64,000 nucleotides of DNA, taken from positions 1,703 to 65,702 of the forward strand of contig CALVMU010000001.1 of the NCBI GenBank assembly GCA_944348085.1, read 5' to 3'. Position 1 is the stretch's first letter. Every line of letters begins with the position of its first letter. Source of the DNA: an uncultured Clostridia bacterium. Its GTDB lineage: Bacteria > Bacillota > Clostridia > Christensenellales > UBA1242. Below the pieces are notes generated by a model. That model was given only the letters and a program-made list of their open reading frames with translations. It searched no databases and had not been told where the DNA came from. A program made the translations under genes and the position numbers. Shown piece by piece: positions 40,278-53,390 of this stretch.

Positions 40278-42590
40278 TTATAAGTAATAATCTTTATAAC
40301 TAACCTCTTTTTCTTTTTCGCGCTTTTGAACATTTGCCTTTGCTTGACCGCGTTTTTTTAAGTAAATGATAAGGAAAATTCCAACACCAAGCACAACAAC
40401 CACGCAAGGCAAAGTTATCCAAAGCCATAAAAGCCCATTTCCATCGCCACCATCTTCAACAATGGTCGGAACAGAAAGAGTTATCGACTGACCTTGAGTG
40501 TTTTCATAAATTTTTGCCACATTGATTGACAGTGTGTAAGTGTTTAGACCATCAGAATTTACTGCGCTGTTTCTGACAACATCCTCTTGTGCCACATTTT
40601 CATTGTAAAGCGACCTTATAACAGTCAAGAAGTTGGCGCTGTCAAAGTCGTAACCCTCATTCATAGTCACAACAACGCTAAGGTTTGTCAGCGTTCTAAG
40701 CACTGTGATAGGGCTTCCTTCATAAGTTGTTCCAGAAACAGTTATAGAGTTTATTCTGTCAGTGTTTAAATTTGAAAAATCAATTGCAATTCCGTTTTCA
40801 CTTGAAAAAACTGCAACAAGCCTAAACGCTTGGTCAAATGGAGCAACACCAAAATTTATTGGAAGGCTTTGCATGCTCGGCGAAACGCTGTCGCTTTCTC
40901 CCGCCCATGTTGTTTCAGGATTGGTATTCCAATCGCCATTTCCGTTTTGATAATAAAGCTCCCAATGCGAGAAGGTGTAATAGCTTTGCGCAACTGCCCT
41001 GATTGTTACTTGAGCGCTCTGAATTGTGTAAGACTGAACAATTGATTCAATAGGGTTCTCACCTGAGAAAGTAACTCCACCTGGCAATATGTCGCCGTCA
41101 CGAGCAACTCTATATTCTGCTCGATAAGCTTTTGCTTGGAAAGTGAAAGAATAAGAACCACTTGTATAGCCATTTGCGCTAAAAGCTATGGTGAAAGAAT
41201 TTGTGTCTTCATTTGCTGTGACAGTATAGTCACCTTCGCCAATTTTTGATGTTCCATTCACGCGTATGTCTGTCAAGTTGTAAAACTGAACCACATTGGT
41301 GATTGTGGCTCCACCTTTTTCTTGTGGTCTAAGAGCCAAAGTGATTGTCAAATCTTTGTTGTATGCAATGTCTCTGATTGAAGTTTCTTCACCTTCCGAT
41401 GAAAAGCTTGCAGAAGAGACAATATTGTCAAGGTTGCTGTCTATTGAGAAAGAAAAGGTTTGAAACTGTTGCAAAACAATATTGCCAGAGCTTGTGCCAA
41501 ACACTGTTTTGAAATTGAAACCTGCACTAACAGGATTGAAATTTGCGCTGTTTGAAATAAATGAATATGTCAAAGAACTTTCAGACCTTAGAGTTTCTGA
41601 AGTGATAAAACTGTCACCATTTTTTCCAACAGGCTGCAAAAGTGCATCAGACCAATAGCAATAGTTTAGAGCAGAATTTAAAATCGAACTGTTTGCAGAG
41701 TTTTGTCCAATTATAGCGCCTGCTGTTATGTCTGACGAAGAAATTGTGCATGAGGCAACATTGTCTTTTACTATAGTTGTGTCACCTTGTGCAAAACCGA
41801 TAAGCCCGCCAAGAGCCACTCCATCAAATGTAGCGCTAGAGCCCTGCGCTGCTTGAGCTGTTATCGCTCCAAAACAAAGAGTTCTCTCAATCACGCTTGA
41901 CGAAAGCACGCCCACAGCTCCACCAATGTTGTATTGATAATTTGCAGGCAAGGTGATGTTCATCTGCCCTTTTAAAACAACATCGCTTATTGAAGAGCCT
42001 TCTCGCAAGTTGCCCACGATAAGCCCAATGTTTGCCGAAGTTGATGGCAAGCTATAAGCAATTGCCGTGCTATTGCCTTCAACTTGAACGCCTGTCACAT
42101 CGATTTCACAATTTGAAATTGAAACGCCGTCACCTCTTCCAAGCAAAACGCCAATTGACAGCACTCCAGCGCTGTTTGCAGAAAAGTTGTATGTCACAGA
42201 GCCTGTGATTTTTAAGTTTTCAATAGTCGCATTTTGAGCCACACCAATAAGCCCAAAATTGTTGCCACCATTTTCATTTGAGAAAGATAAATTTGAAATG
42301 GTGTGTCCATCACCATTTAATGTGCCTTTAAAAACTTGAGAATTGTCACTTGAGGCTGAGGCATTTAAAGTTATTCCAAGCTCAGCAAAATCAAGGTCAG
42401 AAGAAAGTGTGATAGATGAGTATTGCCAAGGCGCGCTGAAAACTTCAGCCGCATTCGATTCATTGACTGTGACCTCTTTAAGGTTTGCCTCATCTGCCAA
42501 AGTGTTATTAAAAGAAAGGGAGCCTAAAGCAAGTCCCCCAACAGCAAGTGCAAAAACCAAAAAAATCGATAAAGATTTAAAAAATTTCAT
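40278..42590 (-). CDS. Large surface protein (770 aa) with a GLUG-like N-terminal module, Ig-like middle region and C-terminal TM anchor
   Basis: Signal peptide, then FKGTLNGDGHTISNL..GLIG as in the giant protein. The C-terminus is LLWLWITLPCVVVVLGVGIFLIIYLKKRG. Confidence 0.75.
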   Translation of the reverse strand: MKFFKSLSIFLVFALAVGGLALGSLSFNNTLADEANLKEVTVNESNAAEVFSAPWQYSSITLSSDLDFAELGITLNASASSDNSQVFKGTLNGDGHTISNLSFSNENGGNNFGLIGVAQNATIENLKITGSVTYNFSANSAGVLSIGVLLGRGDGVSISNCEIDVTGVQVEGNSTAIAYSLPSTSANIGLIVGNLREGSSISDVVLKGQMNITLPANYQYNIGGAVGVLSSSVIERTLCFGAITAQAAQGSSATFDGVALGGLIGFAQGDTTIVKDNVASCTISSSDITAGAIIGQNSANSSILNSALNYCYWSDALLQPVGKNGDSFITSETLRSESSLTYSFISNSANFNPVSAGFNFKTVFGTSSGNIVLQQFQTFSFSIDSNLDNIVSSASFSSEGEETSIRDIAYNKDLTITLALRPQEKGGATITNVVQFYNLTDIRVNGTSKIGEGDYTVTANEDTNSFTIAFSANGYTSGSYSFTFQAKAYRAEYRVARDGDILPGGVTFSGENPIESIVQSYTIQSAQVTIRAVAQSYYTFSHWELYYQNGNGDWNTNPETTWAGESDSVSPSMQSLPINFGVAPFDQAFRLVAVFSSENGIAIDFSNLNTDRINSITVSGTTYEGSPITVLRTLTNLSVVVTMNEGYDFDSANFLTVIRSLYNENVAQEDVVRNSAVNSDGLNTYTLSINVAKIYENTQGQSITLSVPTIVEDGGDGNGLLWLWITLPCVVVVLGVGIFLIIYLKKRGQAKANVQKREKEKEVSYKDYYL

Positions 42591-42684
42591 TTCTCACCTT
42601 TTTCATAGATAATCTTATCATACAAATGTTATTTTTTCCAAATAAATATCGAAATATTTTGCTTTTTGCCGAATTTTTTGAATT

Positions 42685-44106
42685 TTAATGTTTTTTATTC
42701 AATTTTTTTATAAGCCTTTCCTTATCTTTCTGCACCTCTGTCTTTTTTGTCGTGAAAGCCTTGTCCTGATTTAAACTGACAAGATAATATCTCATTTCGT
42801 CAAGGCAGTGGTCATCTTTTTTTATAGGAAGGTCGTCGTCACCCCACCAATATGATTTGATTTCACGAATAAGATTGACGCAATTTTTGAAAATATACAG
42901 ATGCGTTTTTCCATTTGCATCACAAAGATAACGCTTTACAATGTTGATGCCAGTAAACATATCTTTATTCACTCGCGGATTTGTCAAAATGCCATTTTCA
43001 TAGAAAAGTTCCACCACGTTTTTGGTGCTGGCAAGCGTTTTTTGAGTTGCCGCACTGTCAATAAGCGCCTCCAAAAAGCCATTTCGGTTGGTTTTCCAGC
43101 CAAGACGCGAGGCAATCTCTTTGATCTTTTGAGCATGCCAGTCAACCTCTTTGCCTTTTTCATAATGCTCAGCAATCACATAGACATTGCCGTCATAGTC
43201 GCGCGCATAAAAGTGAGCAGAAAGCGGATTGTTGAGTCCTGGGTCGATTGAGATGTTGTCTTGCCAATCTTTTGGAATTTCAAATGGCTCTATCACATGT
43301 TTGTTTTCATCAAAACTGTTATACACAAGTCCGCCACATTGCATAAATTTTCCATAACGCCTGCTTTCCAGCTCTTCCGCCGAAATGGAAGCGCTCATCT
43401 CTTCAATTTCCTTTTGAGAAAGATATGGGTTGTCCGCCCATTCCATTTGAATGGTCCAAACATTTTCGTCATTATGCTCGTTGAGATAGATTTCGTTATA
43501 CACCCAAGTAAGCCCTTTAAGCGGAGTCATTGTTCCAAAAATTTCGCCACTCCGATCAAGAACTCTCATTTTGCATTCCAAATATATGTCATAAGGCGGT
43601 TCTTCATCAAACCAAACAAAATCGAGCGAAGTGCCTTGAAATTTTTCTCTGCCCTGATCGCAACTTTTGAAGCCAATTTTGCTCAGCGAGCCAAAAACAT
43701 TGCGCACCAAAATAAAATCAATCACGCCACTTTCGGCGCTGTCTTGCCTGCCTTTTGCCATCACAATTTTTTCAATCCACTGCTTTTTTAAGTAGTGAAG
43801 CACTTTGGCCTGCGCGACATCGCGTTGAACTTGTTTTGACAAACTGACAACCCAGCAAGAAATTGGCTTGTTTTTTCGATATGGATGAATGCCACGCGCA
43901 AGATAAACTGTTTCCACAGCACCACACTCAGTTTTTCCAGAGCGATTTCCACCAAAAACCCAGCGGTTTTTCTTCTGGCATTTGTGAAATTCAAGTTGTT
44001 TTTTATGGATTTTTTCACCGCTGTTATATTGCGATAAAAAATCATCTTTTTTTCTTTCTTTGATTTCTTCTTTAACTAGTTTAAGTTTATATTTCAATTC
44101 ATTCAT
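42685..44106 (-). CDS. Phage terminase large subunit (apparently intact, orphan)
   Basis: Walker A GGNRSGKTECG, Walker B LDFVWFDEEP, coupling motif GTMTP, and nuclease Asp motifs ISIDPG / DDHCLDEMRYY. The start was moved to MNELKY (AGGTGA SD). Confidence 0.8.
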   Translation of the reverse strand: MNELKYKLKLVKEEIKERKKDDFLSQYNSGEKIHKKQLEFHKCQKKNRWVFGGNRSGKTECGAVETVYLARGIHPYRKNKPISCWVVSLSKQVQRDVAQAKVLHYLKKQWIEKIVMAKGRQDSAESGVIDFILVRNVFGSLSKIGFKSCDQGREKFQGTSLDFVWFDEEPPYDIYLECKMRVLDRSGEIFGTMTPLKGLTWVYNEIYLNEHNDENVWTIQMEWADNPYLSQKEIEEMSASISAEELESRRYGKFMQCGGLVYNSFDENKHVIEPFEIPKDWQDNISIDPGLNNPLSAHFYARDYDGNVYVIAEHYEKGKEVDWHAQKIKEIASRLGWKTNRNGFLEALIDSAATQKTLASTKNVVELFYENGILTNPRVNKDMFTGINIVKRYLCDANGKTHLYIFKNCVNLIREIKSYWWGDDDLPIKKDDHCLDEMRYYLVSLNQDKAFTTKKTEVQKDKERLIKKLNKKH

Positions 44107-44194
44107 TTTTTCACCTGTCAAAATAAGATATTTAGCTTGTTTTTTCGACAAAAAATGGTTAACAATAAAAAATTTTAAAATTTAAAATAAAATC

Positions 44195-44995
44195 ATGATT
44201 AAAAAAATGTGTTTTATAGTTTTAGGTTTATCTCTATTTTGTGCATTTTTTGGCTTCTTCCAGCCTGCAAATGCAAGCGAAAGCATAAGCTATTATGCAA
44301 AAGTTGAAGAAAGCGGAGTCTATTTCTATTCAAATCCAATAGATGACGAAACCAGCAAGCTTTTTATTTTGCCTCAGACATATTTTGTCTATCTGACCGA
44401 CGAGGAAAATGAAAACTTTTATGTCGCACAATATAAAGATGTCTATGGCTATGTGCGAAAACAAGATGTGGTCGTCATGAACGGAACTCCGTCTGTGCCT
44501 TTCGCCAGCCGAAATTTTACAATCAAAGATTTAGATGGACTTTCTCTTTACCCTTCCCCTAGTTTTTCAAACAACACAAGCCTTGCAAAAATTGATTATC
44601 TGACCATCGTCTCGTCATATTATGGCGACATGCCTGGTGAAAATATTCCTGACCTAAACAGCCCATGGTTTTATTGCAAAGTTGTTCAAGATGATGCAAC
44701 TTTGTTTGGCTATGTTTATTCTGACTCATGCTATCGAATCAGCACCATTTCGCCAAATACCGAAAGCTTTGAAATTGTCTCTTCGCCAAGTTTTGATGTT
44801 TCGCAAGGTCAAGAGGCCTCGCTGAGCGAAGTTGCAATGGCATTTATTGTGATTGGCGTTTCTTTGCCTTGCATTCTTATAATCTATCTGCTTATAAAAC
44901 CAAGCCTGCAAAAATCAAAACCTTCACCTTCCAAAAAGAAAGTGCGCAAACGCCACGGTGACTATTTTGAATTTGATGAAAACGACTTAAACTAA
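44195..44995 (+). CDS. Secreted protein with two SH3b-like domains and a C-terminal TM anchor
   Basis: Signal peptide, then YAKV..SGVYFYSNP..YV.KQDV patterns repeated twice. Hydrophobic helix AMAFIVIGVSLPCILIIYLLI. Confidence 0.55.
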   Translation: MIKKMCFIVLGLSLFCAFFGFFQPANASESISYYAKVEESGVYFYSNPIDDETSKLFILPQTYFVYLTDEENENFYVAQYKDVYGYVRKQDVVVMNGTPSVPFASRNFTIKDLDGLSLYPSPSFSNNTSLAKIDYLTIVSSYYGDMPGENIPDLNSPWFYCKVVQDDATLFGYVYSDSCYRISTISPNTESFEIVSSPSFDVSQGQEASLSEVAMAFIVIGVSLPCILIIYLLIKPSLQKSKPSPSKKKVRKRHGDYFEFDENDLN

Positions 44996-44996
44996 G

Positions 44997-45524
44997 CTAG
45001 CCAGCAACAAGTTTTCCCAGTCTGTTTTCGTCAATTTGCACGCTGTCGTCACTCTTTGCAGAAATAAGGCGATTGTAAACTTCCATAATCCACTTTTCCG
45101 ACGAAATATAATCAAACAACCTTTTTTCAGAAAAACCCAGTTTGCTCATTTCAACCGAAAAATGCTCAAGCGCTTCATTCAATCTGCGAAAATATGTTCG
45201 TTCTGAAAGATTATGCCTTTTTGCAATGTCAAAACTCTTTTCATTGTCCATATAGCGTTCAATCAAAATTTGTGCCGACAAAATAGGACATGCCTCAAGT
45301 GCCATATCAATCAAAATCTTAAGGTTTATAAGTTTAACCTTGCGCTCCGACAAATTTATAATGTAATCTGCAACTGATGTTATGCTGTTTTCACTTCCTC
45401 CAGAAAGTCCAACATAAAAAGAATTCAAAGCTCGCCTTTCAATCAACCTATCAATTGCATCGGTAATTCTTTCCAAATACCTATCGACCATCAAAACTGT
45501 TTTTGCACATAAATTAAACTTCAT
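44997..45524 (-). CDS. Sigma-70 region-4-like HTH protein (ArpU/RinA-like phage late-gene activator type)
   Basis: ILIERYMDNEKSFDIAKRHNLSERTYFRRLNEALEHF reads as a region-4 HTH. The start was moved to MKFNL (AGGGGGA SD). Confidence 0.5.
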   Translation of the reverse strand: MKFNLCAKTVLMVDRYLERITDAIDRLIERRALNSFYVGLSGGSENSITSVADYIINLSERKVKLINLKILIDMALEACPILSAQILIERYMDNEKSFDIAKRHNLSERTYFRRLNEALEHFSVEMSKLGFSEKRLFDYISSEKWIMEVYNRLISAKSDDSVQIDENRLGKLVAG

Positions 45525-45602
45525 ATTTCCCCCTTTAATACGAAAAAAATTATAAAATTTAAAACAACAATAGTCAATGTTAACTGCCATAAATTTTTAT
45601 AG

Positions 45603-45626: not shown

Positions 45627-45881
45627 CTACAAAAATGCCGTCAATTTGGCGTCAAAATTATGTCAAAAAGGTAAAAAATTCGACATTTTTCGCACAATTT
45701 TAAAATTTTCAAAATTTCACATCAATTTTTTCAATAAAATTATCGAAATTTTGTTTAAATTGAATATAAAAACTTGTCAAAACAAAAAATTTGTGATAGA
45801 ATAAAAGAGCAATCTCAAAGTTTGCATACAAAATCAGCAAACAAACCGAGTGCAAAAAAACAAGTGCTAAACGCACTTAGC

Positions 45882-46013
45882 ACTGCCCTACAAATAAATA
45901 TGCTGGTGTGGCGGCTCGGGGTCCCCAAAAGCTTATAAAGATTTTGGGGTGATCAGTGGCAGACGCACAGACTTAAAGTCCTGTGCGTAAACTAAATAAA
46001 AAGTTTAGTTATT
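45882..46013 (+). repeat. tRNA-Leu(UAA) 5'-half unit with a D-loop hairpin insert (132-bp unit, tandem to the real gene)
   Basis: The head actgccctacaaataaatatGCTGGTGTGGCGG is identical to 46014-46046. The insert hairpin is at 45923-45949. It is followed by ACGCACAG-ACTTAAAGTC-CTGTGCGT, which still displays TAA. There is no T arm and no 3' acceptor strand. Confidence 0.8.
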
Positions 46014-46033
46014 ACTGCCCTACAAATAAATAT

Positions 46034-46119
46034 GCTGGTGTGGCGGAATGGCAGACGCACAGGACTTAAAATCCTGAGGTGGCAACACCGTGTGGGTTCG
46101 ACTCCCACCACCAGCACCA
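46034..46119 (+). tRNA. tRNA-Leu (TAA), class II
   Basis: GCTGGTGTGGCGGAATGGCAGACGCACAGGACTTAAAATCCTGAGGTGGCAACACCGTGTGGGTTCGACTCCCACCACCAGCACCA. Confidence 0.95.
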
Positions 46120-46256
46120 AAGAAAAATCTGCGTGTGAAATGCAGTTTTTTATTCAAATCAAGTGCGCATAAAAGTGGGAGGTGACCCCTTGGGTGAGAC
46201 GGGTTCCCTGAAAATCGTCAGATTTTTAGGGTAAGGCTTCCACCACCAGCACCAAG
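46120..46256 (+). repeat. tRNA-Leu 3' module L1: weak terminator hairpin, degenerate anti-T-arm box, conserved hairpin, second tRNA 3' end
   Basis: GTGGGAGGTGACCCC (46175-46189). Hairpin CCCTGAAAATC-GTCA-GATTTTTAGGG (46206-46231). ccaccaccagcaccaa at 46240-46255 is identical to 46105-46120. L1 is about 90% identical to 50367-50508. Confidence 0.8.
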
Positions 46257-46496
46257 TATACTATACAAAAAGTCTTTTTTTGAAAAGGACTTGACACACT
46301 GCATACAGTGGCTTTGATTGATTTTTGCACTGTATACAGAGTTGGAAGTGACAACATGGCGAAAGATTGGAAGAAAAACAGAAAAAAGTGTCTTATTTAG
46401 GAAAATGAATTTTGATTTTTTTACTTAAAAATTAAATTAAATCAAAAATAATCAAAAATCAAAATAGGTGGTATAATTTTCGTTGAGGTTAAGAAA

Positions 46497-47087
46497 ATGA
46501 TTATTGAAACTGATAGATTGATTTTAAGAGAATGGAAAATGTCTGACATTGAAGATAATGTTGAAGGATTGAATAATTTTAATGTTACAAAAAACTTAAC
46601 TGTCAAGTTTCCGTATACAAAACAAGATGCAATATGCTTTATTGAAAAACATAGAAATAATGATGAAGAGAATTATTATTTTGCAATTCAATTAAAAAAT
46701 GAAAACAAGGTTATTGGTGGAACTGCTATATTAGTTGATAAACATAATATGATTGGAAAGGGTGGAATTTGGATAAATGAAAAATATTTGGGAAAAGGAT
46801 ATGGGACGGAGGTTTGGATAGCGAGAGCAAAGTTTGCTTTTGAAAATTTGTCTTTGAAAAAATTGCAGAATGGTTATTTCGAATTTAACGAAATCTCTTG
46901 GAAAATGCAAAAAAAAGTAGGCTATAAAATTGTAGGAGAAAAAACTAATTTTAGCAAAGCCCTTAATCAAAAAGTTAAAGAGATTGTAACAGAATTGACA
47001 AAAAGTGAATTCAATAAAGCATTAGAAAAAAACTTTAAACAAATAAATTTTACATTTAAAGTTTTAGAAGATAACAAGTATTCGTGA
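46497..47087 (+). CDS. GNAT N-acetyltransferase (RimJ/RimL-like)
   Basis: TDRLILREW at the N-terminus and the acetyl-CoA motif NEKYLGKGYGTE. Confidence 0.8.
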   Translation: MIIETDRLILREWKMSDIEDNVEGLNNFNVTKNLTVKFPYTKQDAICFIEKHRNNDEENYYFAIQLKNENKVIGGTAILVDKHNMIGKGGIWINEKYLGKGYGTEVWIARAKFAFENLSLKKLQNGYFEFNEISWKMQKKVGYKIVGEKTNFSKALNQKVKEIVTELTKSEFNKALEKNFKQINFTFKVLEDNKYS

Positions 47088-47157
47088 TCAATTATGTAAT
47101 GTCGCGAAATCAATGTTGAGAAATCAAAAAATCGACTTTGTTGTTAGTCGACACACA

Positions 47158-47242
47158 GAAAAATCTGCGTGTGAAATGCAGTTTTTTATTCAAATCAAAT
47201 GCGCATAAAAGAGGGAGGCAAATCTTTGGGTGAGACGGGTTG
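47158..47242 (+). repeat. L3: partial third copy of the tRNA-Leu downstream module, not next to a tRNA
   Basis: 78 of 85 nt are identical to 46121-46205, including TTGGGTGAGACGGGTT. After that it diverges into a different hairpin, GGTTGCAA..TTGCGACC. Confidence 0.75.
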
Positions 47243-49675: not shown

Positions 49676-49750
49676 GCGGGAGTGGCTCAGTGGTAGAGCG
49701 TTGCCTTGCCAAGGCAAATGTCGCGGGTTCGAATCCCGTCTTCCGCTCCA
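49676..49750 (+). tRNA. tRNA-Gly (GCC)
   Basis: GCGGGAGTGGCTCAGTGGTAGAGCGTTGCCTTGCCAAGGCAAATGTCGCGGGTTCGAATCCCGTCTTCCGCTCCA. Confidence 0.95.
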
Positions 49751-49755
49751 TAAAT

Positions 49756-49830
49756 GGTACCATCGCCAAGCGGTAAGGCAAAGGTCTGCAAAACCTTTAT
49801 TCCCCGGTTCAAATCCGGGTGGTACCTCCA
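49756..49830 (+). tRNA. tRNA-Cys (GCA)
   Basis: GGTACCATCGCCAAGCGGTAAGGCAAAGGTCTGCAAAACCTTTATTCCCCGGTTCAAATCCGGGTGGTACCTCCA. Confidence 0.95.
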
Positions 49831-49833
49831 AAA

Positions 49834-49862
49834 GCGACTTCTTTTAGAGGTCGCCATTTTTA
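49834..49862 (+). terminator. Terminator after tRNA-Gly/Cys
   Basis: GCGAC-N11-GTCGC followed by cattttt. Confidence 0.55.
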
Positions 49863-49990
49863 TAAAGAAACCTTTGCCCAAATTGCTAAAACAGAATGCC
49901 CCACCCTTTGACTTAACATTCCAAAATATTTACATGTTTTGCGATAAAACACAAACAAAAATCAGGTGCGCAAAATTGATAACTTGATTT

Positions 49991-50124
49991 CTACTGCCCT
50001 ACAATTTAATATGCTGGTGTGGCGGCTCGGGGTCCCCAAAAACTTATAAAGATTTTGGGGTGATCAGTGGCAGACCGACGGCTCAAGAGTCCGTCGCGAA
50101 AACGAAATTGACTTACTTAGTTTT
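49991..50124 (+). repeat. tRNA-Leu(CAA) 5'-half unit, copy 1 (134 bp)
   Basis: Head ctactgccctacaatttaatatGCTGGTGTGGCGG, D-loop insert hairpin at 50034-50060, anticodon-like hairpin CGACGG-CTCAAGAGT-CCGTCG, and tail hairpin GAAAAC..GTTTTC. Confidence 0.8.
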
Positions 50125-50258
50125 CTACTGCCCTACAATTTTATATGCTGGTGTGGCGGTTCGGGGTCCCCAAAAGCTTATAAAGGTTTTGGGGTGATCA
50201 GTGGCAGACCGACGGCTCAAGAGTCCGTCGCGAAAACGAAATTGACTTACTTAGTTTT
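50125..50258 (+). repeat. tRNA-Leu(CAA) 5'-half unit, copy 2 (134 bp)
   Basis: Near-identical to copy 1, with a handful of substitutions. Its hairpin is at 50168-50194. Confidence 0.8.
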
Positions 50259-50280
50259 CTACTGCCCTACAATTTTATAT

Positions 50281-50366
50281 GCTGGTGTGGCGGAATGGCA
50301 GACGCGACGGACTCAAAATCCGTTGAGGGCAACTTCATGTGGGTTCGACTCCCACCACCAGCACCA
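50281..50366 (+). tRNA. tRNA-Leu (CAA), class II
   Basis: GCTGGTGTGGCGGAATGGCAGACGCGACGGACTCAAAATCCGTTGAGGGCAACTTCATGTGGGTTCGACTCCCACCACCAGCACCA. Confidence 0.95.
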
Positions 50367-50508
50367 AGAAAAAATCTGCGTGTAAAATGCAGTTTTTTTA
50401 TTTAAATCAAATGCACATAAAATGTGGGAGTCGAACCCTTGGGTGAGACGGGTTCCCTGAAAATCGCCAGATTTTTAGGGTAAGGCTTCCACCACCAGCA
50501 CCAAGAAA
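50367..50508 (+). repeat. tRNA-Leu 3' module L2: exact anti-T-arm box, conserved hairpins, second tRNA 3' end
   Basis: GTGGGAGTCGAACCC (50424-50438) is the rc of the T arm GGGTTCGACTCCCAC. The hairpin is at 50455-50480. The 20-bp block ccaccaccagcaccaagaaa at 50489-50508 is identical to 50352-50371. Confidence 0.85.
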
Positions 50509-50718: not shown

Positions 50719-52383
50719 TTATTTTATCTTTCGGCTTTCACTGCAAGAAAAATATGCCACTTGGTATGATTTTGCAAGTTCTTCTAAAATCGGCACAGCC
50801 ATTGCAAAATTTTGATCATCTAGATTGACAAAACTGTCATCTAGAATAACGCAAGGCTTTTCTTTTTTATAAACTTTGTCAAGAAGGCTAAAACGCTGGC
50901 AAATCACCACCAAATCGCGATAACCTTGGCTTAAATATTCCACATTTTTTGCGCCTTGACTTGTGATAATCCAAGGATTGAGTGAGCTGTCAATCGAAAT
51001 CTTTTCAGAACCATTAAAGCCATCGAAAAAGCTTTGAAATTTTTCGTTCAAAGGAGTAACAAACCTTTCACTAACATTTTCTCTTGCCAATTTTAAAAAG
51101 TTCATTGTCTTTTTCAGAAGCTCGATTTTTTCAAGCCCGCCCTTTCGCTCGGCTGCAAGCGCGCTCTCATTTGTCAGCAAAATGGAAAGCTCTTCCTGCT
51201 TGCTTTCAATTTCACTGGTCAGGTTTGCCACTTTTGCGCTGGCATGTGCATAGCCTTGTTCAATTTCCAATTTTTTCTGATAAAGCGCTTCACTGTCAAT
51301 TTCTTCAGCTTCAGGTAGCGCCTCAATCTCAACCTTCAATTTGTCGATTTCACCTCTTAAAGCCATAATCTCTTCGTTTGCAAAAGTGTCTCTAGGTTTG
51401 TTTTTAAAAATTAAAAGCGCTCCGCCCAAAAGCAAAAATATTGCACCAACTGTAAGACCAATTTCTATCGCCAAAACATCAAAGGCAAAAAGCAAAACAA
51501 AAATTGCACCGACTGAAAACAACAAAATTGAAAGAGGCAAGAATTTTGGTTTTGTCTTTTCAATTGGTTTTTGATTTGCAAGCTCATTTAAGCGCAAATT
51601 TTTGCTGTTAAACTGCTCTTGCAACGCTCTTTTTTCATCAGCAAGTTTTCTTTGCTCTTTTGCCTTTTCTCTTTCTTCTTCAAAAATCTTGTCAAATTCA
51701 TGTTTTTCAAAAGTCTGTTTTTGCAAATCGGCAGTCTCATTTTTCAAAAGTTGTTCAGCCTCTGAAATATCCTTTTTTAGTCTCTCGATATTTCTTTCAA
51801 TTTGCTTAAGCTCGACCTCTTTTGGAAGAAGAGATACCAGCTCTTTACGATTTTTCTCTAGCAATTTGATTGCAAATTCTGTTTTTTCGCCATCATTTTT
51901 GTATTTTTCAATGCCTGCAAGGTTGGAAACAACCTCGTCTGTTGAAGAAGATGACAAATCATTTTGACCAAAAAATGCAGAAATGGCAAAAGTTTCTTTG
52001 CCAACGCCAAAAAGCTCTTCGCCAATATTTTCAGAATAATCACCGCTTATTTTATTAGCATTTAAGTCAAAAAGCTGAAAACTGTCTTCCTCTGGCGTTT
52101 TGCCAAAAGTTCTGAAAATTTGATAGTTTTTTCCTCTGGCTTCAATTGTCATGTTTCCGCCAAATTTGCCACCCTGCCAAGGTTCATATTTTGAGCGCTC
52201 TGACTGATAATCTTTTTTTCTTCCCTTTGCCTCAAGTCCATAAAACATTGCTTTGATAAATGCGCAAAGTGTGCTTTTTCCCCAGCCATTTTCGTGGATA
52301 AACTGATTGAGCTCGCTGGAAAAAGAAAGGTCAAAGTTTGACAGTTTGCCAAAATTTTCGATATGAAGTTTTACAATTTTCAT
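50719..52383 (-). CDS. SbcC/Rad50-like (YhaN-type) AAA ATPase with two predicted TM helices in the middle of the coiled coil
   Basis: N-terminal ENGWGKST P-loop. C-terminal LSQGYRDL signature-like motif and the Walker B motif CVILDDSFVNLD. Residues 281-326 (FLPLSILLFSVGAIFVLLFAFDVLAIEIGLTVGAIFLLLGGALLIF) are hydrophobic. Confidence 0.7.
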   Translation of the reverse strand: MKIVKLHIENFGKLSNFDLSFSSELNQFIHENGWGKSTLCAFIKAMFYGLEAKGRKKDYQSERSKYEPWQGGKFGGNMTIEARGKNYQIFRTFGKTPEEDSFQLFDLNANKISGDYSENIGEELFGVGKETFAISAFFGQNDLSSSSTDEVVSNLAGIEKYKNDGEKTEFAIKLLEKNRKELVSLLPKEVELKQIERNIERLKKDISEAEQLLKNETADLQKQTFEKHEFDKIFEEEREKAKEQRKLADEKRALQEQFNSKNLRLNELANQKPIEKTKPKFLPLSILLFSVGAIFVLLFAFDVLAIEIGLTVGAIFLLLGGALLIFKNKPRDTFANEEIMALRGEIDKLKVEIEALPEAEEIDSEALYQKKLEIEQGYAHASAKVANLTSEIESKQEELSILLTNESALAAERKGGLEKIELLKKTMNFLKLARENVSERFVTPLNEKFQSFFDGFNGSEKISIDSSLNPWIITSQGAKNVEYLSQGYRDLVVICQRFSLLDKVYKKEKPCVILDDSFVNLDDQNFAMAVPILEELAKSYQVAYFSCSESRKIK

Positions 52384-53390
52384 AATGACAAATCATCTCC
52401 TTTTAGCGCTTCAATTCCAATAGTCAAAATTTTGTTTTTTTCTTCCTCACCAAGCTCTGCCTCTTCAACCAACCTTATAAACTCCGCCTTAAAAGAAAGA
52501 GGCTCGTTTTTATATCTCTCAATGTCAATTTCAACCTTTGTTTTGTCAACAAATTCAACATAAAAAGCATTTGCTCCTCTGATGATAGAAGCAAAATCTG
52601 GCTTTTCGCCTTCGGCATAATAGCCTGTGAAAACAAGCCTTAGAAGATTGTTTTTGTTTTCTTCGATAACTTTTTTAAGCTCATTTGAAAGATTTTCCTG
52701 CCCTGGCGTTAAAGCAAATTCAACAATTTTAAATTGGCGCTGAGGCAGTGGCTTAAACTCCGCCTTAACCTCATCTTTCACATCAACCAGCACAAAACCT
52801 TTCTCACCACACTCATCAAAGCCGTTTGCAAAAAGAGCACCACTATAGCAAATCAGGCTTTTCTGAAAAGTGCCCTTCCAAAAACTATGCTCATGCCCAA
52901 GTGCAATATAGTCAAAAGGTTTGGTAACATATTTTTTTAAATCAACAAAGTCATAATCGCTTTTATTTGAAATTTCGCCGTGCAAAAGAAGAACATTTTT
53001 CTTGCTGTAATCAAAATTTTGATATTCTTCACAAGCAGACCAGAAGTCAACATTTTCAGTGCGAAAAACATTGTTTTTCTCGTCCAAAACTATAAAATTG
53101 CTTGGAGCAAATTCAAACTCCATTTTCTCGTCATGATTTCCATTGATATACAAAACTGGTCTGCCAAATTTTTCAACCTCTTTGAAAAATGCTTTTTTGA
53201 TTTTTTGCGTGACAAAATTTGTGTGAAAAAGGTCGCCACACACAAGCATAACATCAGAGTCTTCTTGAAAAAGCGTGGAAAGGCTGTCGATATGCTCTTG
53301 CAGAAGTTGTTTTTGTTTGATAAGAGGCAACTTGACATTTTTTGCGCCAAGATGCAAATCAGCAGTATGTAAAATTTTTTCAACTCTCAT
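52380..53390 (-). CDS. SbcD/Mre11-like (YhaO-type) metallophosphoesterase nuclease subunit
   Basis: HTADLHLG, VCGDLFH, INGNHD, LLLHGE and ALGHEH motifs. It overlaps the ATPase gene by 4 nt. Confidence 0.8.
   Translation of the reverse strand: MRVEKILHTADLHLGAKNVKLPLIKQKQLLQEHIDSLSTLFQEDSDVMLVCGDLFHTNFVTQKIKKAFFKEVEKFGRPVLYINGNHDEKMEFEFAPSNFIVLDEKNNVFRTENVDFWSACEEYQNFDYSKKNVLLLHGEISNKSDYDFVDLKKYVTKPFDYIALGHEHSFWKGTFQKSLICYSGALFANGFDECGEKGFVLVDVKDEVKAEFKPLPQRQFKIVEFALTPGQENLSNELKKVIEENKNNLLRLVFTGYYAEGEKPDFASIIRGANAFYVEFVDKTKVEIDIERYKNEPLSFKAEFIRLVEEAELGEEEKNKILTIGIEALKGDDLSL

Follow-up and report, generated by a model that had tools for sequence, protein, structure and literature searches.

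tRNA genes are classic landing sites for mobile DNA, and the usual footprint of such an event is a short repeat of the gene's 3' end beside a large island that carries an integrase. Williams is said to have described, in 2002, that the integrases concerned duplicate the 3' part of their tRNA gene and leave no 5' halves with a leader. Intrastrand template switching can correct quasipalindromes as DNA replicates, an established mutational mechanism. Integrase-mediated islands at tRNA genes show partial duplications (att repeats) and tandem accretion and include integrase-less CIMEs (reviewed in PMC5704250), and tandem ssrA islands are known from Dehalococcoides (PMC3146451).

We analysed a window of 64,000 nucleotides (the whole stretch of DNA under study) from an uncultured gut Clostridia bacterium, in which two tRNA-Leu genes have adjoining tRNA gene fragments. 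The fragments downstream of each gene (modules) share much with islands and CIMEs: the insert lies between direct repeats (17-34 bp) of the tRNA 3' end, an intact tRNA gene remains, its insertion point is restored, stacking is in tandem and the cargo cassettes vary between strains; as in a CIME, the element is without an integrase of its own. However, the modules are only ~120-140 bp long and non-coding with no integrase found nearby, they include an inverted copy of the T arm with a palindrome in the T loop, and 5' halves with the leader (units) are also duplicated upstream of the gene. The locus departs from the usual footprint in that tiny, non-coding, strain-variable tRNA gene fragments lie on both sides of the gene, that a palindrome occupies a former tRNA loop of each fragment, and that tRNA hairpins have been made perfect palindromes, apparently templated on the neighbouring gene. 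We favour a reading in which units and modules are DNA insertions of recent origin that vary between strains and lie at a two-paralogue tRNA-Leu recombination and insertion hot spot, not new RNA genes, and our confidence in it stands midway between doubt and assurance.

The two tRNA-Leu loci

All features described here lie on the + strand. At the first locus a 132-nt 5' unit is followed by a leader, the tRNA-Leu(UAA) gene (46034-46119) and a 137-nt 3' module; every coordinate and sequence statement that a preliminary description had given for this locus was reproduced. A promoter-like site for the tRNA-Leu(UAA) transcription unit (45774-45802, TTGTCA-17-TAGAAT with TG, 10/12 matches) is unchanged in relatives and strains, and, judged from its sequence, would produce a 5' leader of ~220 nt with the unit inside it.

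In the unit, the 20-nt tRNA leader is copied first (ACTGCCCTACAAATAAATAT, 45882-45901, identical to 46014-46033), then tRNA-Leu nucleotides 1-13 (GCTGGTGTGGCGG, 45902-45914); as had been described, 45882 and 46014 start two identical copies of the 33-nt head ACTGCCCTACAAATAAATATGCTGGTGTGGCGG, with a period of 132 bp. The AAT of the D loop is replaced by a 43-nt insert (45915-45957), namely a palindrome that we call X with flanks CTC and GATCAGT. Here X consists of GGGGT, the previously noted hairpin CCCCAAAAGCTTATAAAGATTTTGGGG (45923-45949) and T, and it is homologous to the module hairpins of L011 and L109. The remaining D arm (GGCAGAC) and a perfected anticodon-arm palindrome occupy 45958-45988; the palindrome itself (45963-45988), earlier called an anticodon-like hairpin, reads ACGCACAG / ACTTAAAGTC / CTGTGCGT and forms an 11-bp stem with a UAA triloop. 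An A/T-rich tail (45989-46013) closes the unit, its hairpin AACTAAA-N7-TTTAGTT lying at 45990-46010, and the 20-nt leader and intact tRNA gene follow at 46014-46119 (ARAGORN, Rfam). The tail hairpin is no convincing terminator, and we rejected it as an attenuator: it is made of A/T only, is uncalled by a terminator scan and differs between unit types. An additional promoter for each unit was rejected as well: the candidate in the tail and head of the CAA units (TTGACT-20 nt-TACAAT) has too long a spacer and is not conserved, and a promoter scan inside the UAA unit found none.

The 3' module begins with an intrinsic terminator (CTGCGTGTGAAATGCAG and a T run, 46120-46151), downstream of which lie a spacer and a three-way junction (46152-46239). 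In the junction, P1 pairs GTGGGAG (46175-46181) with CTTCCAC (46237-46243), P2 descends from an inverted T arm, and P3 is a diverged X palindrome (46201-46232) in the former T loop. The module closes with a duplicate of the tRNA 3' end (CCACCACCAGCACCAAG, 46240-46256), which restores the …GCACCA insertion point; the earlier statement that CCACCACCAGCACCAA at 46240-46255 equals 46105-46120 is correct, and CCACCACCAGCACCAA(G) thus forms a direct repeat at 46105 and 46240 around which the intact tRNA is retained, as in integrase islands and CIMEs. A group II intron 5' end was considered for GTGCG at 46163 and discarded, since the motif is not conserved in other module copies.

At the second locus, two tandem 134-nt 5' units of the same build with a CAA-type hairpin (49988-50255) precede tRNA-Leu(CAA) (50281-50366) and its 3' module (50367-50505), the tRNA and module together spanning 50281-50505. 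The two CAA units are 97% identical to each other, and the UAA unit is 79-81% identical to either. The modules at 46120-46256 and 50367-50505 share 91.4% identity, in agreement with the earlier figure of about 90%, and in the CAA module the T arm recurs inverted over 15 nt without a mismatch. A third, truncated module that the preliminary description had overlooked follows the GNAT gene at 47154-47241; it holds the terminator, the spacer and the start of the junction, ends after GGGTGAGACGGGTT and is 91% identical over 88 nt.

Gene cassettes lie at the same point as the modules. The GNAT acetyltransferase cassette (46257-47153, gene 46497-47087) is inserted behind the module's tRNA-end copy, and it, a MazE/ABC cassette and others directly abut …GCACCA, whether of the tRNA or of a module, with exactly one insertion nucleotide in common. 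The GNAT cassette is missing from strains L155 and L156. Right ends of the gene cassettes have only 5-9 nt in common with the tRNA end, and a flanking tRNA 3'-end repeat was sought at the island in L015 and not found. By inspection, small promoter-less cargo (GNAT, antitoxin) at one fixed nucleotide with structured repeats in between resembles an integron-like array, but there is neither an IntI gene nor an attC R'/R'' signature, and insertion is at the tRNA CCA end. No recombinase, integrase or transposase domain turned up in a scan of 29 window ORFs or in the called cassette genes of L138-L158.

Presence and absence in strains and relatives

Orthologous tRNA-Leu loci were compared among relatives; both genes are there, and units and modules are missing in the more distant ones. 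L013, L015 and L017, with conserved gene order and a neighbour protein 64-79% identical, have a plain tRNA-Leu and terminator. In L011, whose neighbour protein is 90% identical, modules stand at both tRNA-Leu genes and units are absent. Strains of this species with an identical DegV protein have 0, 1 or 2 units at either locus. As in CIMEs, filled and empty sites can be aligned: L139 is without a unit where L138 has one of 169 nt with a 13-nt repeat on both sides, L152 and L154 are further empty unit sites, and L140 differs from L139 by an extra 141-nt module exactly between the tRNA's ACCA and the cassette, closed by an 18-nt copy of the tRNA 3' end. The direct tRNA 3'-end repeat is also 18 nt in L011 and reaches 34 nt in L138. 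These natural 0/1/2-copy variants are material for studying hot-spot growth and cassette shuffling.

All relatives that are without units and modules have the two tRNA-Leu isoacceptors at these positions, and each is 98-100% identical to its orthologue; for tRNA-Leu(UAA), identity is 100% among strains and with relatives L013-L017. Relative to all relatives, Leu(UAA) and Leu(CAA) have swapped position in this genome, and in a sister lineage Leu(UAA) alone is left between these flanks. The swap and the sister lineage without the intervening segment are compatible with circle excision or mobilisation in trans.

Identity between strains is 92-97% for units, mostly 98-100% for flanking intergenic DNA and 100% for the tRNAs. 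Point mutations build up in the X, the hairpin and the 13-nt segment of the unit, and L140 and L141 have older, degenerate units further upstream. On this comparison of sequences the units would seem to be under no visible constraint, as they diverge faster than flanking intergenic DNA. Modules are 87-91% identical within one genome vs 67-78% between species. In L109, at tRNA-Leu(AAG), the module's 3' end follows that tRNA's different acceptor sequence, and at tRNA-Lys in L066 and tRNA-Thr in L065 the tRNA 3' end is copied in inverted and/or direct orientation and accompanied by X.

The structures are not an assembly artefact, because the same ones occur in independent assemblies from other samples: both CAA units are found again in L146, and in L157 the UAA unit and module match at 100% identity. 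In L001 and L002 one CAA unit is seen, through either collapse in assembly or genuine variation. Scans of JGI metagenomes for the unit junction and module junction gave 0 matches, and scans of viral contigs for the unit, X and the neighbouring proteins gave 0 relevant matches. A phage origin, suggested by a terminase gene (42685-44151), was rejected: the window holds AlaRS, CysRS, Lgt, transketolase and other genes of that sort, its gene order is kept in chromosomal MAG contigs, and no similar phage record was found.

Anticodon matching and competing explanations

The preliminary description had proposed that each half-unit tracks the anticodon of its adjacent tRNA. This is true without exception of the units seen, which number more than 20 and come from at least 10 assemblies; they include mosaic units in L140 and L156 that have the other locus's head, tail or leader. 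The match exceeds what had been recognised: the 3' arm of the UAA unit hairpin (AAGTCCTGTGCGT) is the exact reverse complement of 13 nt (22-34) of its own tRNA, and that of the CAA units is the exact reverse complement of 12 nt (23-34) of theirs, with no cross match between either arm and the other tRNA-Leu. The hairpins of the two unit types differ exactly as their tRNAs do, on both arms; different substitutions lead to one structural outcome, and the loop is closed down to 3-4 nt.

From this matching it had been concluded that the units arose locally or co-evolve with their tRNA and were not pasted in as one mobile sequence; local origin without pasting is not supported. Units and modules are recent additions with clean presence and absence in near-identical strains; the leader of the L138 unit differs from the native one at 5/20 positions; and units and modules share the foreign palindrome X, with parts exchanged between the two loci. 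Because of the presence/absence polymorphism, the foreign X and the exchanged parts, the units behave as inserted or recombining DNA. The hairpin part was either locally re-templated on the neighbouring tRNA or inherited in linkage with it.

A unit is built on a fragment that comprises the leader and tRNA nucleotides 1-34, and a module on one that comprises the T arm and the acceptor 3' end; in both, a native tRNA hairpin has turned into a longer perfect palindrome, the anticodon arm by folding on itself and the T arm through an inverted copy with which it pairs. Whatever tRNA segment stands to the left of the insertion point recurs as a copy at the end of the insertion (the leader and GCTGGTGTGGCGG in units, …CCACCACCAGCACCA in modules), so the insertion target is regenerated and more units, modules or gene cassettes could stack in tandem. 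Insertions of this kind would be created by recombination at short repeated tRNA segments, either through a recombinase acting in trans, outside the window ORFs tested, or through short-homology recombination; the recombining enzyme remains hypothetical. The perfect palindromes probably come from intrastrand template switching. As in quasipalindrome correction, an imperfect inverted repeat (anticodon arm; T arm) has become a longer perfect one, one arm is an exact complement, and the change reaches a few nucleotides past the original stem; unlike the known cases, two unit types have changed to the same extent, and in duplicated fragments rather than in the gene; the mechanism is one we infer. 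Anticodon tracking would then follow from a hairpin that was templated on the neighbouring tRNA gene and stays linked to it. The 4-kb segment between the tRNA-Leu genes may have been excised and re-inserted via the same repeats, which would explain the swapped Leu(UAA) and Leu(CAA). The unit itself would be passively co-transcribed in the pre-tRNA leader and then removed by RNase P at the tRNA 5' end.

Several observations weigh against insertion at a hot spot. No recombinase turned up in the ORFs and cassette genes named above, the duplicated 5' halves with leader are unexplained by known tRNA integrases, and cassette right ends match the tRNA end over those few nucleotides only. That palindromisation took place twice, independently and over the same stretch (nt 22/23-34), looks deterministic, and could instead reflect selection for a stable hairpin. 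Finally, the four stem transitions seen (in module P1 and P3, in the X of L152 and in the hairpin of L158) all give G·T pairs on the + strand, with a chance of about 1 in 16; this is the pattern that would be expected of an RNA or + strand single-stranded DNA structure under selection.

First among the alternatives is passive decay, a possible account though one we hold to be on the unlikely side, in which slippage or unequal crossing-over duplicates tRNA-Leu, a REP-like palindrome lands, the copies erode and homologous recombination varies their number, all without site-specific machinery. Tandem arrays with a period of 132-134 nt, 0/1/2 copy variation, degenerate older units in L140 and L141, point mutations in X, hairpin and 13-nt segment, divergence that outpaces the flanks and the window's 29 scanned ORFs free of a recombinase would all be in keeping with it. 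However, the inserted DNA is largely non-local (X, tail, terminator, spacer), and the L138 unit brings a non-native leader though a crossover would span only 13 nt. Erosion also fits poorly with a module build that recurs at tRNA-Leu(AAG), tRNA-Lys and tRNA-Thr in other genomes, with an X placed exactly within a loop of either fragment type, and with cassettes that enter at exactly one nucleotide.

Second, the unit could be a functional part of the pre-tRNA-Leu leader, a structured RNA that shows the cognate anticodon triplet in a tight loop and whose match is kept by selection. Such an RNA could serve as a decoy or sponge for a factor that binds tRNA-Leu, or as a processing or stability element; an anticodon nuclease, a modification enzyme and a toxin are candidate targets. 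We find this doubtful. The unit does lie between promoter and tRNA and would be co-transcribed, it is predicted to fold into three independent hairpins that leave the cloverleaf undisturbed (z = -4.2 for the UAA unit), hairpin type always equals tRNA type even in mosaic units, differing UAA and CAA substitutions reach the same structure, and the stem transitions yield G·U on the transcribed strand. Yet the folds of the CAA units do not surpass those of shuffled sequences (z = -1.1 and -0.8), units occur only in the closest relatives and are missing at either locus in some strains of the same species, their copy number varies, they evolve faster than neutral-looking flanks, and a loop of 3-4 nt does not mimic an anticodon loop. 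Rfam on the unit gave no family match at E up to 5, a known cis-regulatory leader such as a T-box included, and the loop displays the anticodon itself (UAA / CAA) rather than a codon, unlike a T-box specifier. The locus offers a way to test whether pre-tRNA leaders that are long and structured do anything.

A bolder proposal is that units and modules form a class of miniature elements not described before, which are non-coding, target tRNA genes, are carried by X, copy and perfect the hairpins of their target and leave leader RNAs resembling tRNA halves that display the anticodon, possibly as self-updating decoys or regulators of tRNA-Leu; we regard it as speculative and its probability as low.

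It is highly improbable that unit and module are pieces of a split, expanded tRNA-like RNA that pair through their acceptor strands (GCUGGUG/CACCAGC) and bear extra elbow hairpins. As in split or permuted tRNA and tmRNA genes, separate pieces bear the 5' and 3' acceptor strands and could pair; in a predicted cofold, with a gain of -13.8 kcal/mol, the acceptor strands form a 7-bp helix that stacks on P1, and X takes the D-loop position in one piece and the T-loop position in the other. Weak permuted-tmRNA matches, which cover the tRNA 3' end and first module part, have E 0.25-0.28 and are below threshold. But the 5' half and 3' module of the preliminary description do not sum to a tRNA or cloverleaf: an intact tRNA lies between them, the 3' anticodon-stem strand and the variable arm are missing from the pieces, the D stem is broken in CAA units, and the junction part of the module is downstream of the intrinsic terminator. 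The two also occur independently, with modules but no units in L011 and L139, units with only a truncated module nearby in L141, and a unit number that varies where the module is single. In ARAGORN and Rfam RF00005 searches only 46034-46119 and 50281-50366 were called, with units and modules uncalled even at E up to 5.

Least credible of all, a recent segmental duplication of unit, tRNA and module with loops differing by chance mutation, the scenario that had been named as fatal to anticodon tracking, would account for heads, X inserts and modules that are highly similar between the loci but is excluded by the presence of both isoacceptors, 98-100% identical to orthologues, at these positions in relatives free of units and modules, and by hairpins that differ exactly as the tRNAs do on both arms.

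Palindrome X outside the tRNA-Leu fragments

Members of the X family (GGGGTCCCCAAAA…TTTTGGGGT) lie in the D loop of the unit and in the T loop of the module, and within the window X is confined to the three units and, in diverged form, two modules. Searches with Rfam of the window and the X arrays at gathering and permissive thresholds returned only the tRNAs and sub-threshold noise, and a literature string search for the X core gave nothing relevant. We discarded X arrays as CRISPR or as repeats like those of type III antitoxins, their spacers being 8-10 nt and near-identical, with no associated gene.

In other respects X resembles REP/REPIN-type extragenic palindromes: it is a short imperfect palindrome, multi-copy, mostly intergenic and often in tandem, and its flank is a conserved, 5' tetranucleotide-like extension (GGGGT). 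It differs from them in that REPs are usually species-specific and the X core recurs across many phyla, and in its restriction to tRNA-Leu fragments in this window. In the 8-kb neighbourhoods of X copies, the protein families in common were housekeeping ones, and no RAYT-like or other common gene was seen. X, conserved in sequence across so many phyla, may merit separate study. As a dispersed repeat it is found at 120 loci or more, with 5-8 loci each in several single genomes; it falls inside open frames in 43% of cases vs 86% for random positions, often stands behind terminators, and forms tandem arrays with a period of 40-45 nt.

Fragments flanking the two tRNA-Leu genes

ARAGORN and Rfam both place tRNA-Leu(UAA) at 46034-46119 and tRNA-Leu(CAA) at 50281-50366. 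The 33-nt sequence ACTGCCCTACAAATAAATATGCTGGTGTGGCGG, which consists of a 20-nt leader and tRNA nucleotides 1-13, occurs twice upstream of the Leu(UAA) gene at a spacing of 132 nt. In the fragment so opened (the 5' unit), a 43-nt insert (45915-45957) replaces the AAT of the D loop and is followed by GGCAGAC, a long hairpin (45963-45988) and an A/T hairpin tail. Behind the gene, the 3' module runs from an intrinsic terminator (46129-46151) through a spacer and a three-way junction (P1, GTGGGAG/CTTCCAC) to 17 nt that repeat the tRNA 3' end (46240-46256). At the Leu(CAA) locus there are two units, which share 97% identity and match the UAA unit at 79-81%, together with a module that is 91.4% identical to the UAA module; a third, truncated module lies behind a GNAT gene (47154-47241). 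Independent assemblies from other samples (L146, L157) contain the same structures and bear out what the preliminary description had observed at the Leu(UAA) locus. Two same-species assemblies (L001, L002) have one CAA unit, and the window (49988-50255) and L146 have two, although many short-read contigs stop inside units and repeats break or collapse assemblies, so that unit counts taken from short-read MAGs should be read cautiously.

In each unit the long hairpin is tRNA sequence folded back on itself: its 3' arm is an exact reverse complement of nucleotides 22-34 of the tRNA in the UAA unit (13 nt) and of 23-34 in the CAA units (12 nt), the dyad falls at the centre of the anticodon, and the loop has shrunk to UAA or CAAG. 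No cross match was found between either type of unit hairpin and the other tRNA. The proposal that units track the anticodon of their own tRNA describes something real, which the fold-back explains at the sequence level. Such a hairpin is the expected signature of template switching on a quasi-palindrome, and this mechanism may have produced it.

The module of L011, the orthologous locus of a related species, reads TTGGGAGTCGAACCC-AA-GGGTTCG-[C GGGGTCCCCAAAAA…TTTTAGGGGT AAGGG]-CTCCCACCACCAGCACCA, where the brackets enclose a small palindrome, X. Without X, the module is an inverted T arm, a T arm and then the acceptor 3' strand, with X positioned in the T loop. The D-loop insert of the unit, CTC GGGGTCCCCAAAAG…ATTTTGGGGT GATCAGT, belongs to the same palindrome family, so both kinds of fragment bear X within a former tRNA loop. 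Within the window, X is confined to the three units and, as a diverged version, to the two modules; every copy lies on the strand of the tRNAs.

Relatives, strains and the exchange of isoacceptors

Orthologous loci were found by way of the neighbouring 197-aa protein, which is encoded in divergent orientation and whose homologues are identical to the window protein at 90% in L011, 79% in L013, 67% in L015 and 64% in L017. The conserved order is SbcD, SbcC, tRNAs, DegV, Spo0A_C, tRNA, the 175/197-aa gene and terminase. Units and modules are both absent from L013, L015 and L017, where plain tRNA-Leu genes are followed by ordinary terminators, and L011 has modules behind both tRNA-Leu genes and no units; the two elements are thus young additions. 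Both isoacceptor genes are old residents at both positions in the relatives, which rules out a recent segmental duplication of the whole locus, a scenario raised in the preliminary description.

In all four related species, Leu(CAA) lies beside the 175-aa gene and Gly-Cys-Leu(UAA) beside SbcC, whereas in the window the two tRNA-Leu genes have exchanged positions, each still 98-100% identical to its orthologue. The order in the relatives, tRNA-Gly(GCC), tRNA-Cys(GCA), tRNA-Leu(UAA), matches that of the E. coli glyW-cysT-leuZ operon; the window (49676-50366) has Leu(CAA) as the last gene. A sister lineage (L138-L143) has Leu(UAA) alone between the same flanks; DegV, Spo0A_C, tRNA-Gly, tRNA-Cys and Leu(CAA) are missing from this location. 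These arrangements could be connected if each tRNA is written a-c-b, with identical 5' and 3' segments (a, b) and an isoacceptor-specific centre (c). From an ancestral X-a-c1-b-M-a-c2-b-Y (X and Y here being the flanks), recombination between the a segments would yield a circle and X-a-c2-b-Y, the sister-lineage arrangement, and re-entry of the circle through b would give X-a-c2-b-M-a-c1-b-Y, the arrangement of the window. We infer that such excision and re-insertion fits the window, the relatives and the sister lineage.

Sister-lineage strains with an identical 197-aa protein (P0001, 94% identical to that of the window) differ among themselves in units, modules and cassettes. L139 and L143 lack the unit and run tRNA, GNAT cassette, module; L138 and L142 have a single unit containing X twice, a module between 34-bp repeats and a MazE/ABC cassette; L140 has two units and one degenerate unit, a module at the precise boundary of the tRNA's ACCA with the GNAT cassette of L139/L143, and a truncated module behind that cassette. 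All strains whose DegV protein is identical to that of the window share the window arrangement, with zero, one or two units at either locus and differing cassettes. Cassettes always start immediately 3' of …GCACCA. Because the unit of L138 retains the native leader, ACTACCATACAACCAAATAT, which L139 also has, and the tRNA behind it has a unit-type leader, L138 differs from the empty site by a 169-nt block bounded by a 13-nt repeat. Mosaic units (L140, L156) combine a UAA hairpin with a CAA-type head, tail or leader. Modules are more similar within a genome than to those of other species, so the two tRNA-Leu loci exchange sequence.

At 46257-47241 of the window, a GNAT acetyltransferase gene (46497-47087) lies between the full and truncated modules; other strains have, at the same nucleotide after …GCACCA, a second GNAT, NT5C-GNAT, MazE with an ABC transporter, or a PHP protein. 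In layout the locus is reminiscent of the cassette array of an integron, although no integrase is seen.

An isolated terminase large-subunit gene (42685-44151) stands beside proteins of 770, 266 and 197 aa that have sub-threshold Pfam matches or none (40278-45590); no other phage gene was recognised in this region, and its gene order is kept even in species whose 197-aa neighbour is only 64% identical. Despite this gene, a phage origin of the window was rejected, as it is chromosomal DNA of an uncultured Clostridia bacterium (37.7% GC) with genes including AlaRS, CysRS, Lgt and transketolase.

The X palindrome and similar builds at other tRNAs

With a single genome taken for each species, a scan for GGGGTCCCCAAAA-N8-16-TTTT-N0-1-GGGGT gave at least 120 loci, against roughly one match estimated by chance. 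The matches listed come from Nitrospirota, Alpha- and Betaproteobacteria, Desulfobacterota, Chlamydiae, Chloroflexi, Saccharibacteria, Eremiobacterota, Bacteroidia, Thermotogae, Campylobacterota and many gut Clostridia. Among these listed matches, copies often form tandem arrays (40-45 nt period) and lie behind terminators, several genomes have 5-8 loci each, X is depleted from open frames (43% inside, vs 86% of random positions), and no gene common to the neighbourhoods was found. X had no Rfam family and no match in the literature searched. The palindrome GGGGTCCCCAAAA…TTTTGGGGT has a constant core in many phyla and is mostly intergenic (L018-L137; e.g., L122 5830-6040, L099 2576-2687, L135 1831-1950). 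Such cross-phylum sequence conservation is unusual for a REP-like repeat.

In another uncultured Clostridia MAG (L109), tRNA-Leu(AAG) is followed by a terminator, an inverted T arm, GGGTTCG, X and then CTTCCACCGCTCGCACCA, and the final copy in this module matches the acceptor sequence of its own tRNA. ARAGORN assigns this tRNA (2695-2776) the anticodon AAG (A34), which is unusual for bacteria. At a tRNA-Lys (L066), the 3' end is copied both inverted and direct, with X hairpins, and at a tRNA-Thr (L065) X separates the tRNA from a degenerate, directly repeated copy of its 3' end. The shared build argues for a process that recurs at the 3' ends of tRNAs in this group of bacteria.

Insertion hot spot or functional RNA

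The best-supported account, to which we give about an even chance, is that the two paralogous tRNA-Leu genes form a hot spot of insertion and recombination that varies between strains, with miniature non-coding insertions composed of tRNA fragments and a REP-like palindrome. The interpretation in the preliminary description is right in part. Its contention that the units were not pasted in is not supported, as they are inserted, recombining DNA and have a foreign palindrome in common with the modules. A scan of 29 ORFs of the window detected no recombinase domain. The hot spot varies known kinds, namely att-type tRNA duplications, CIME-like accretion and REP-like repeats, and is no new class.

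A constrained, functional RNA, in the form of a self-matching leader RNA, seems improbable. Units are missing from relatives and some strains and vary in copy number; they diverge faster (92-97% identity) than flanking intergenic DNA (mostly 98-100%), the tRNAs being invariant; CAA units fold no better than shuffled sequences; the module's junction follows the terminator; and unit and module are each found without the other. Some structural constraint is nevertheless suggested by the parallel palindromisation of UAA and CAA units and by the stem transitions seen in units and modules (46175-46243, 46206-46231; L152 7570-7600; L158 3265-3285), all four of which lead to G·T on the + strand and none to A·C. 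This hints that the + strand, as RNA or single-stranded DNA, may be the one that folds. Pairing of unit and module through their acceptor strands would be thermodynamically possible, but the observations that tell against a constrained RNA speak against it as well.

Given a promoter-like site at 45774-45802, the UAA unit would fall within the pre-tRNA 5' leader. When the predicted primary transcript is folded, the unit and the cloverleaf form separate structures, and so the unit is probably harmless leader material. Finally, SbcC- and SbcD-like genes (50719-53390), whose products cleave DNA hairpins, directly adjoin this palindrome-rich locus; since they do so also in relatives without units, the adjacency is probably a coincidence.
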